Assembly (NCBI GenBank): GCA_037379345.1
Contig: CM074515.1
Location: 3,596,001-3,660,000 of the forward strand
Length of the DNA stretch: 64,000 bases
Source of the DNA: Perna viridis
Taxonomy: Eukaryota
Direction: 5' to 3'
Part shown: positions 24,701 to 27,700 of the stretch, one piece after another
Layout: the number at the start of each line of letters is the position of its first letter
Numbering within the stretch: position 1 is the first letter of the stretch
Notes under the pieces: generated by a model
The model's input: the letters and a program-made list of their open reading frames with translations, nothing else
The model's database searches: none
What the model was told of the DNA's origin: nothing
Program-made: the position numbers and the translations under genes

Positions 24701-27700
24701 AGATCAATATGCAATACAATTATTGTAACCTCATTAAATGTGGTATTTTAAATCTTGCCAATTTATTCCTTCTTATAATTGAAAATTGGAATATTGATAA
24801 GTTAATAAATTGGAAGACCACCTATGAATGCTTTTAAAAGAACACCTATCAGGGTGAAGGCATTTGATAGTGTCTGGCATCCTGGTCTCTAGTATAAAGT
24901 TTTTGTCAAGGCATTTGATACAGTATGGCACCCTGTTCTCTGGTATAAAGTTTTGTGAAGGCATTTGATACAGTTGAGCACCCTGGTCTCAAGTGTGAAG
25001 TTTTTGTGAAGATGTTTGATACAGTTGGGGTCCTGGTCTCTAGTATAAAGTTTTTGTGAAGCCATTTGATTCAGTCTGGCACCTTGGTCTCTAGTATAAA
25101 GTTTTTGTGAAAGCATTTGATACAGTCTGGCACCCTGGTCTCTGGGATAAAGTTTTAAATCATACTGTGAATGGAAAAATGTATGACATAATTGTTAATA
25201 TTAGATCACATATATTAAATGGTAGTGAATTTTCAGGTCCCACATGGGTGATAGATATATTGGGAATCTTTCTCCTCTGGTATTTTCCTTATATATAAAT
25301 GTTTGGAAAATATCATGGTTTAAAATCGCCTTTCAAGTCTATCAGACAAGATTCAATAAGTCAATAAATGTTAGGATCTTTTTCCGTTATTGTATGGTGA
25401 AGATACTGCATTATTGTCTGAATTAGAAAATGATTTATCAAGACAGTCAAATACTGTTCAAGATTACTTTGTCTTATAGGCTAAAAACCACTAATTCCAC
25501 TTCCCATAGGCTTCTATGCTAATTTCACAATATTCAATGGCTTCTCTGGACTTTACCTTAACTTTAACCTGCAGAGGACTATATATCAGCATGATTCTAC
25601 ATATGTCAGCTCACAATCCTCAGAATGGCATGTGGGGTTAGCAGACTTGCAGTGCAGTACTGGTCACCGGAAGTGAAGGGTCTATAAATAGCATGGGAAA
25701 TCCCAGTGTTTTCACAAGATAGGGGTATATTTAAAAATCATTATGGAGATTAGGCTTCACATCACAAGAAGCAAAATGCACCTATAAAATGTACAGAAAT
25801 GGTTTTCCTTTCAGAAACTGTTTAAATTTTTTAAATAAGATGAGAACTTTTTTCACAGCACTATGAGGAACAGGGGTAATTTCTGCGTAGGACTATTTTT
25901 GCGTACGTTCCAAATGCTGATTGGTTGAATTGGTGGTCTGTAACCTAAAGAGTCACTTTTTGTCTTAGAAAAAATAAATAACTATACAGGTATCTTCCTA
26001 CACACATACTGAATGCATTTGCAAAGTTTCAGTGAAATGTGACAAGTACTTTTTTAAATATTTGATTTTTAAGTATAGGGTAACCAAGTTGTGCGAGCAA
26101 AAAAGTGACAATATTCTACCATACTTAAATGCATTAAATATTTGCAAAGAACTTTTTCTGACTTTTCAAATAAAAAATATCAATCACAACTTGTTTTTTA
26201 ACAATATTAATGAAGAAATAGTTTTAAAGTAATCATTTTCTGAGAAATTGGTCTATTTTTAAAAATTTATTTCTGACATGCCTCCCCCTTTTTCTTGATC
26301 ACATGTCAAAAATCCCAAATCTTTAAATTTTCACAAAAGGTGATATATTTGGCTTTAAATTTGTAAATACAGTGTTTTCACATTAAAACATGACCAGTAA
26401 AGGGCACCTAAAGCAAAAAAAGTACTCAATAATGGATTTTTCATGTTGCCATAGGGGAATGCTTATATGGCCTTAACCGCAGTAATGAAAGTGAGTTTTT
26501 CCTCATTTCTAACCTAATTTTTGCTCAAATCTACACAAAACTTGATTTCAAGTGCTTATTACCACCATATTTAGGTAAATATAGCCCTCAAAGTTTAATA
26601 TTTGATATTTTTACTAAATTTTCTACACTTTTTACAAGATAGGACATAAAAATCAGCCAAAAAGACCAATTTTCCATAATTTGGACCTATAACTTAAAAA
26701 AATGCATATTTTGAAGGATTTTTGTAGTGTATCTACAAGATCTTCAAGTAGTTTAAAGCTATTTCAAGGAACTTTTTATTTTGCCATGGCTTTAGCTTAA
26801 GGCTAAAAACCACTAATTCCACTTCCCATAGGCTTCTATGCTAATTTCACAATATTCAATGGCTTCTCTGGACTTTACCTTAACTTTAACCTGCAGAGGA
26901 CTATATATCAGCATGATTCTACATATGTCAGCTCACAATCCTCAGAATGGCATGTGGGGTTAGCAGACTTGCAGTGCAGTACTGGTCACCGGAAGTGAAG
27001 GGTCTATAAATAGCATGGGAAATCCCAGTGTTTTCACAAGATAGGGGTATATTTAAAAATCATTATGGAGATTAGGCTTCACATCACAAGAAGCAAAATG
27101 CACCTATAAAATGTACAGAAATGGTTTTCCTTTCAGAAACTGTTTAAATTTTTTAAATAAGATGAGAACTTTTTTCACAGCACTATGAGGAACAGGGGTA
27201 ATTTCTGCGTAGGACTATTTTTGCGTACGTTCCAAATGCTGATTGGTTGAATTGGTGGTCTGTAACCTAAAGAACCTCAAAGTAAAAAGATAAGAGTCAA
27301 ATATTTGTTTTTATTCAGTTTTAACATTTTCTCTTTCGTCTTTTGATATCTGTTACAGATTACTCCCCCTGATTTGGTGACCCAGGTGGTGCTGATAGCA
27401 GAGAGTGCTCGTCTTCAGCAATTGTTAGCTACATATGGTATTCAAACACAAACTCCTCACCAGGTGGAGCCTATGCAGATATGGTCACCAAAGGAATTGT
27501 CAAAAGCTTATGAATATTTAGGTGTCAATAAAAAACTGAAGTTGACTGGTAGACCCAAACGACCATTTGGTGTTTTAAGTACATCAAAGGTAAGCAGATG
27601 TTTAATCATACGATCATACATATGATAAATGTTTTATATATAGATTCTCCTTCAGTTATGAACGGTTTAAATTATTTCTCCATTCCGGATGGTCAAATTA

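Follow-up and report, generated by a model that had tools for sequence, protein, structure and literature searches.

A young, polymorphic non-autonomous KolobokP element in a PHKB intron of Perna viridis, and a side-specific flank signature in its family

The window, as we call the whole 64,000-nucleotide stretch of Perna viridis DNA analysed here (G000, C5:3,596,001-3,660,000; element positions are counted within it), carries at 25479-27267 a transposable element made of a pair of long terminal direct repeats (LTDRs) and an interior (INT). The features at and around it are as follows.

24858..25476, and on from about 27272, + strand: decayed LINE-like reverse-transcriptase fragment, split by the element
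25475..25478, + strand: target tetramer TATA, found a single time in the empty allele
25479..25945, + strand: left LTDR, 467 bp, GG..CC, with an imperfect terminal inverted repeat (15/19)
25946..26800, + strand: interior (INT), non-coding, 855 bp, starting with TAAA and ending with TTAA
26801..27267, + strand: right LTDR, 467 bp, 0 mismatches against the left LTDR
27268..27271, + strand: TAAA where the second target copy is expected, the same as the first four INT bases
27359..27589, + strand: PHKB exon, 77 codons, matching human PHKB residues 492-564 (E 1.5e-24)

The PHKB exon begins 91 bases past the end of the element, in agreement with the spacing of about 90 bp claimed from the sequence alone; the element is intronic. 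The pyrimidine tract and AG of this exon lie downstream of the element and are intact; a single insertion in a PHKB intron, with the splice signals uninterrupted, is an ordinary event. On the other side, KAFDTVWH and LYGED-type stretches are recognisable in the LINE-like fragment, but its match to Pfam RVT_1 (E 0.18) is under the cut-off. The KAFD..WH-coding stretch of the fragment occurs in 50-51-bp tandem copies (window 24854-25156).

The sequence-only reading had described two identical 467-bp repeats around a non-coding 855-bp spacer, an imperfect inverted pair in each repeat and the absence of TG..CA ends, and each of these points was borne out: the repeats are free of mismatches, 15 of the first 19 positions match in inverted orientation between the two LTDR ends, and the termini are GG..CC. 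It had also placed TWWA tetramers beside all ends. This is true of the window copy (outer TATA on the left and TAAA on the right, inner TAAA and TTAA) but not of the family, in which targets are mostly TNNA and duplications are of 4-6 bp. The window INT is some 18 bp short of most family copies (about 873 bp), and both window LTDRs carry two minority alleles, at positions 324 and 441, each of which is found in 9 of 134 LTDRs. Five ORF products from two autonomous families of KolobokP were compared with the INT, with no meaningful match (best E 0.68). The copy encodes neither a transposase nor a His-Me nuclease, as expected of a non-autonomous member.

KolobokP is known from sequence only; the describing study reports the layout LTDR-INT-LTDR, solo LTDRs, multimers and losses of 3-4 bp at INT-INT junctions, proposes a circle, and leaves open by which pathway the element moves, whether solo LTDRs are mobile and what the nuclease does (PMC9587614). 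The model for the nuclease is still termed unconfirmed in a later source (PMC13565253). The window element has the KolobokP layout (467-855-467, where LTDRs of about 450 or 660 bp are typical) and the short inverted ends with RR..YY termini (GG..CC, 15/19). Where KolobokP duplicates 3-5 bp of target, 36 of 51 unselected family members have duplications of 4-6 bp, and the window copy has a 4-bp target with its right copy replaced. The family also includes solo LTDRs, (LTDR-INT)n-LTDR multimers flanked by outer duplications and INT-INT junctions that have lost 3-4 bp, while the TG..CA ends of TRIM or LTR retrotransposons are absent from the window element and the strict TTAA target of the piggyBac superfamily is not that of the family. 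The earlier assignment to non-autonomous KolobokP is thereby upheld, and that the element at this site is a KolobokP we regard as virtually certain. It is a young, polymorphic, new non-autonomous family member of a known KolobokP type.

The polymorphism was established by aligning four sequencing runs to the site, a contig being counted as bridging only if it reached 31 bases into the element. Single contigs of X1 and of X3, which come from two studies, connect 25477 to 27271, and two contigs of X2 stop at the same breakpoints as the X1/X3 junction. The contigs of X16, which is perhaps the assembled animal itself, contain both junctions yet enter the repeat by only 20-21 bases, below the required 31, and no support was drawn from them. 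TATA is present once in the empty allele, whereas the filled allele reads TATA, element, TAAA. It follows that the TAAA on the right is added sequence and not a target copy, and that insertion contributed the element together with TAAA. The empty allele may instead stem from precise excision. The sequence-only reading had called the element very young, with identical repeats; LTDR identity alone gives no insertion date.

The reason for this lies in the behaviour of the family. Among 25 monomers, the two LTDRs differ at a median of 3 positions within a monomer as against 8 between elements, and in 24 of the 25 pairs they share minority alleles, which indicates that LTDRs are homogenised within a lineage and that their identity is no clean clock. 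The family is large: its 19-base right end is matched exactly 6,942 times (3,451 + 3,491) in the 723-Mb genome, a reversed control never, and there are 2,147 exact LTDR-INT junctions genome-wide. If the matches are full length, they take up about 5 Mb, which is 0.7% of the genome. A search for solo repeats and for the same layout elsewhere found that the arrangement recurs throughout the genome and is not unique; solo LTDRs, monomers, multimers and INT-INT junctions are all seen among the fetched loci. The largest array (C4:23,626,451-23,693,969; 67.5 kb) has an outer TAGA duplication and, judged by its ends and the inner units listed, is a single insertion, as is one of 25.5 kb with an outer TATA duplication (C11:9,241,691-9,267,148). 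Partial LTDR ends, inspected by eye, had no obvious shared breakpoint, and a nuclease cut site gains no support from them.

Some loci depart from these forms. At C1:0.58-0.62 Mb (L094, L095) a solo LTDR lies within a 1,299-bp tandem unit that is unrelated to it and has been co-amplified with this unit, some units being without the LTDR. A 1,767-bp array on C1 was considered as a longer INT and rejected, since it is an LTDR inside another tandem unit. At L160 and L337, LTDRs or parts of them are joined in inverted orientation.

Flanks were classified at 145 distinct insertions, each with both full-length outer ends in one fetched locus; truncated copies and arrays with ends in separate loci were excluded. 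An unselected set of 51 comprises 20 top-identity matches and 31 insertions from C1 0-6.6 Mb. The remaining 94, mostly from C1, were chosen by flank tetramer, and rates are therefore taken from the 51 only. In these, 36 insertions have clean 4-6-bp duplications and 15 do not, nine of the latter with TAAA on the right. Targets in the family are mostly TNNA (TATA, TTAA, TTTA, TCTA, TGTA, TACA and others). Four of the 51 are 3-bp cases, all with TTAA on the left and TAAA on the right.

The departures from clean duplication are specific to one side and one tetramer. In the set of 145, sites with right TAAA were clean in 29 cases and not clean in 45 (45 of 74), those with right TTAA were clean in 24 and not clean in none, those with left TAAA were clean in 29 and not clean in two, and those with left TTAA were clean in 25 and not clean in 24. 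When right-TAAA sites are dropped, 6 of 31 left-TTAA sites are not clean, which points to a weaker carry-over on the left. Fisher tests of right TAAA against two controls gave p 2e-8 and 1e-7. Fifteen of the 45 not-clean right-TAAA sites have TAAA followed by a duplication of at least 4 bases. The left 4-mer is found again at offset 4 at 13 of the 45 sites, but never at offsets 1-3 and at most twice at each of offsets 5-12; in 20,000 permutations the recurrence at offset 4 had a mean of 2.8 and a maximum of 10 (p 5e-5). By form, the 45 are 31 solo LTDRs, 11 monomers and 3 multimers, and the solo LTDRs with right TAAA differ from the majority sequence at a median of 7 positions, as against 5 for clean ones. 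INT-like tracts at the flanks mostly end after four bases.

On the left, extra bases equal to the INT end were found at L004, L025 and L287, and left TAAA with other right flanks at L195 and L196; no case of a duplication with TAAA on the left was found among the 145. Paralogous empty sites were obtained for 17 of the 145 insertions, just one of them in the informative class (L241, where insertion added 8 bases), and this search yielded no empty allele for a TTAA|TAAA site. L263 and L278 have TAAA on both sides, nested in an outer 4-bp duplication (TGTA and TTTA, respectively), which is perhaps the result of re-insertion into a carried tetramer.

A second family, resembling KolobokP-3_PeVi and with an INT of TATT..ATTA, has six insertions with both ends seen. 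Three are clean; of the others, one has right TATT and a duplication, one has a duplication and left TATTA, and one is ambiguous. This family likewise shows its own interior bases, the replicate resting on two cases.

INT-INT junctions were collected by a pattern that matches only where the two INT ends are almost complete and that counts overlapping loci repeatedly; among the 62 strings so obtained, TTAA is kept in 17, TAAA in 8 and both in 1, and 36 show a 3-bp loss. There are 65 head-to-tail junctions between LTDRs, spread over 14 loci. By locus, their spacer is TAAA at five, TTAA at two, TAAATTAA in one array and something else at six. TAAATTAA, which consists of both interior ends, joins the LTDRs in 41 of the 65 junctions, all in that one array. 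C6:9.058-9.087 Mb holds LTDRs in a satellite-like run that repeats every 475 bp, with TAAATTAA between units and a few gaps of full INT size.

The sequence-only reading had also called for an autonomous partner elsewhere in the genome, and an intact element of the kind was found using a distant database protein (P0085) as query, the best 87 of 661 candidates being scored. This element (L373, C4:22,802,973-22,807,137) is 4,165 bp long, with identical 471-bp LTDRs and an INT of TAAAGA..TTAA. It has a transposase frame of 650 codons (PF20700, E 2.8e-48), in which the invariant residues D261, D364, H389 and E531 have putative roles, and on the opposite strand a frame of 134 codons (PF05551, His-Me nuclease, E 4.5e-13). 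The DDD/E and C/DxxH transposase and the opposite His-Me nuclease of KolobokP are thus present in an element that shares its ends with the window family. Monomers on C8 and C3 differ from L373 and from each other at 3-8 positions in 4,165 bp, and a 45-kb partner array on C15 has a TAGA duplication. Two of three partner monomers have right TAAA, in place of the duplication at L374 and beside it at L375.

The LTDRs of partner and window element are identical in 299 of 481 alignment columns, among them the outermost 19 bases on the left and 18 on the right. Further in, blocks of about 21, 21 and 31 bases are nearly or fully identical as well, and these three are candidate sites for the transposase or the nuclease; they lie at LTDR positions of about 74-94, 154-176 and 407-437, the first holding TTAA, while the centre of the LTDR has drifted. 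From the shared ends we infer that the partner moves the window family, and an L373-type element is quite probably the mover. Against this assignment stand an LTDR centre that is only about 62% identical, an unaligned INT and the other autonomous families in the genome. As the partner INT gave no alignment with the window INT above shuffles, the window INT was rejected as a simple deletion derivative of it.

Other candidates for the partner were set aside. Families from searches with PF05551 and PF20700 (best 150 of 574 and 114 of 661 scored) have LTDRs that differ from the window LTDR, and two genome transposases used as queries (best 120 of 594 and 72 of 826 scored) led to other families. 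The KolobokP-3_PeVi-like family, which has similar ends, was dropped once another family had identical ones, and a weak match of the window INT to it disappeared under stricter gap costs.

The window family is missing from the tables of PMC9587614 (2022), and the three PeVi families given there are others. KolobokP-1_PeVi and KolobokP-3_PeVi are intact in this genome (L136 and L138 match the published starts), and their LTDRs gave no alignment with the window LTDR above shuffles. In the accessible portions of the supplements to that study, the left-end and INT-start motifs of the window family are absent and its right-end 13-mer occurs once, in KolobokP-8DR01_CorFlu. This element, from another species, matches the ends of the window LTDR by eye at 16 of 18 positions on the left and 17 of 18 on the right, but its LTDR centre differs; the LTDR of KolobokP-4_MoPh, also from another species, has sub-terminal stretches in common with the window LTDR and again a different centre. 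As far as the same portions go, the nearest published element by eye is KolobokP-1_BaPl of Bathymodiolus platifrons (autonomous, 4,169 bp, LTDR 470; PMC9587614). It resembles the window element in the right part of the LTDR, the INT start and an INT of TAAA..TTAA, but has other terminal bases, and the window element is gene-less; to the partner it is nearly equal in size, with a transposase N-terminus that is similar by eye. Non-autonomous KolobokP-5N1_OwFu (1,797 bp, LTDR 468) is like the window family in size, LTDR class and its solo, monomer, multimer and INT-INT forms. KolobokP-N1_CorFlu has 2,693 LTDR copies, the maximum of Table S1, as against the 6,942 exact ends of the window family, which were counted differently. 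From the published non-autonomous families the window family differs in having arrays of up to 67.5 kb.

How might the interior tetramer come to lie at a new site? The reading that we prefer, with a probability of roughly 0.6, is that the family is moved by the intact 4,165-bp partner, whose transposase would leave each end, once excised, with about four bases from the donor flank. The partner transposase would bind the ends common to the partner and the window family, nick each 3' end and cut the opposite strand some 4 nt out in the flanking DNA, either through a hairpin or directly. The excised ends would then bear about four flank bases as 5' flaps, a piggyBac-like overhang. After strand transfer into a target staggered by 4-6 bp, the flap would usually be trimmed to give a clean duplication; sealed into the gap, it would replace a target copy, as in the window element; and were the gap filled before sealing, TAAA and the duplication would both be kept. 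At the donor site, closure would leave a single tetramer, as seen at INT-INT junctions. Carry-over of the overhang at insertion, taken as a step by itself, has in our estimate somewhat better than an even chance of being correct.

The carried bases being INT ends, each donor would be a monomer's left LTDR or a unit within an array; with such donors, solo LTDRs would be real transposition products and the window monomer would have come from a multimer. Loose TNNA targeting means that donor and target would often mismatch, so that an overhang would become visible. The footprints (INT-INT junctions, flank tetramers and the second family) appear to fit piggyBac-like excision. The enzymes of hAT and Mutator elements, which are relatives of Kolobok, form hairpins on the flank, in contrast to what carry-over supposes. 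For piggyBac, the source (PMC7351741) gives a TTAA-like 4-bp target, a 4-nt flank overhang and one tetramer left at the donor, as proposed here, although piggyBac, a member of a different superfamily, accepts TTAA strictly, whereas the targets of the window family are loose. The excess of TAAA on the right fits the published counts of INT-LTDR over LTDR-INT (40 to 6), which amount to preferential loss of the left LTDR (PMC9587614 Table 3).

An alternative that we consider unlikely is deletion in place, in which staggered cuts at two like ends in a monomer or multimer (say, the two right ends) remove INT-LTDR and leave an LTDR, TAAA and the old duplication, the solo LTDR never having moved. With the same 4-nt stagger it covers both the extra-TAAA and the replaced-copy classes, and it is favoured by the 31 solo LTDRs among the 45 right-TAAA cases and by their slightly greater divergence (median 7 against 5). 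The 11 monomers and 3 multimers would, however, each need an earlier and larger array at their own site, and the signature is also present in two autonomous monomers that are very young (3-8 differences in 4,165 bp). The pairing of two like-oriented ends is, moreover, an unusual synapse.

Less probable again is copy-out-paste-in through a circle in which the ends abut across a flank spacer that is sometimes kept, like the IS3/IS256 pathway (PMC9587614). The 65 head-to-tail junctions at 14 loci, with TAAA as spacer at five and TTAA at two, speak for a circle; homogenisation of LTDRs within monomers suits a circle with one LTDR, and L195 and L196 fit as well. A circle should nevertheless put the spacer on either side, and not-clean TAAA is found at 45 of 74 sites on the right but 2 of 31 on the left, with no duplication accompanied by TAAA on the left; INT-INT junctions with a single tetramer are better suited by cutting out and rejoining.

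Point mutation, 3-bp duplication or short gene-conversion tracts copied from array members, none of which would bear on the cutting chemistry, seem to us a very improbable source of the imperfect flanks, even though TATA or TTAA becomes TAAA by one change, templates are plentiful (2,147 exact LTDR-INT junctions) and TTAA|TAAA sites can be read as the 3-bp duplications given for some families (PMC9587614 Table S1). Such events cannot yield four extra bases before a full duplication (15 cases, 13 of them exact, p 5e-5); right TTAA is clean in 24 of 24, all four unselected 3-bp cases are TTAA|TAAA, and most INT-like tracts run no further than four bases. The twin direct repeats, the short non-coding interior and the lack of a long read spanning the site might suggest a TRIM-type LTR retrotransposon or a duplication made in assembly, but the GG..CC inverted ends and the homology to the LTDR of an element with a DDE transposase refute a TRIM, and termini near those of published KolobokP LTDRs, many loci alike and an empty allele make either extremely improbable.

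Returning to carry-over by the partner transposase, we give an even chance to its widest form, namely that Kolobok transposases carry about four donor bases per end, visible in about one-fifth of insertions, that solo LTDRs are mini-transposons excised from the left side of composite units, that long arrays (up to 140 kb of intact autonomous units) are launch pads of new monomers, and that this scheme replaces the circle. The element type is known; what is added here is a donor footprint that is side-specific and has been counted in two families, and it makes the open question of the KolobokP pathway directly testable. In the text of PMC9587614 available, no mention of donor bases at new sites was found, and its Figures S2-S5 may show such flanks; among the openly available literature listed, no study of Kolobok cutting chemistry was found. 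If the reading is true, the carried bases serve as birth marks, and the superfamily gains a first mechanistic handle. The genome itself is a test system, with intact and near-identical partner copies, thousands of substrates, sites that are polymorphic and, in the flanks, a signature from which the cut can be predicted.

Further KolobokP elements were seen in the course of the searches. The autonomous KolobokP-3_PeVi-like element forms tandem arrays at C8:44,288,587-44,430,406 and at C15:26.48-26.65 Mb and 25.73-25.89 Mb; in 113 of the best 114 of 661 PF20700 matches the frame is open over 695-696 codons. From one TGCA copy to the other, the C8 array measures 141.8 kb, its right LTDR aligning over 33 bases only. 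Another autonomous family (L378-L384; for example at C1:66.543-66.547 Mb, C11:0.14-0.16 Mb, C13:36.03-36.09 Mb) has a 706-codon PF20700 frame, an opposite His-Me frame, LTDRs of about 470 bp and an array period near 3.7 kb. A partly decayed KolobokP family has 17 of its best 20 matches on C13, which suggests local spread. Finally, at C2:60.46-60.53 Mb, His-Me nuclease matches recur every 920 bases or so, too tightly for an intervening transposase, as though amplification had affected only the nuclease gene.
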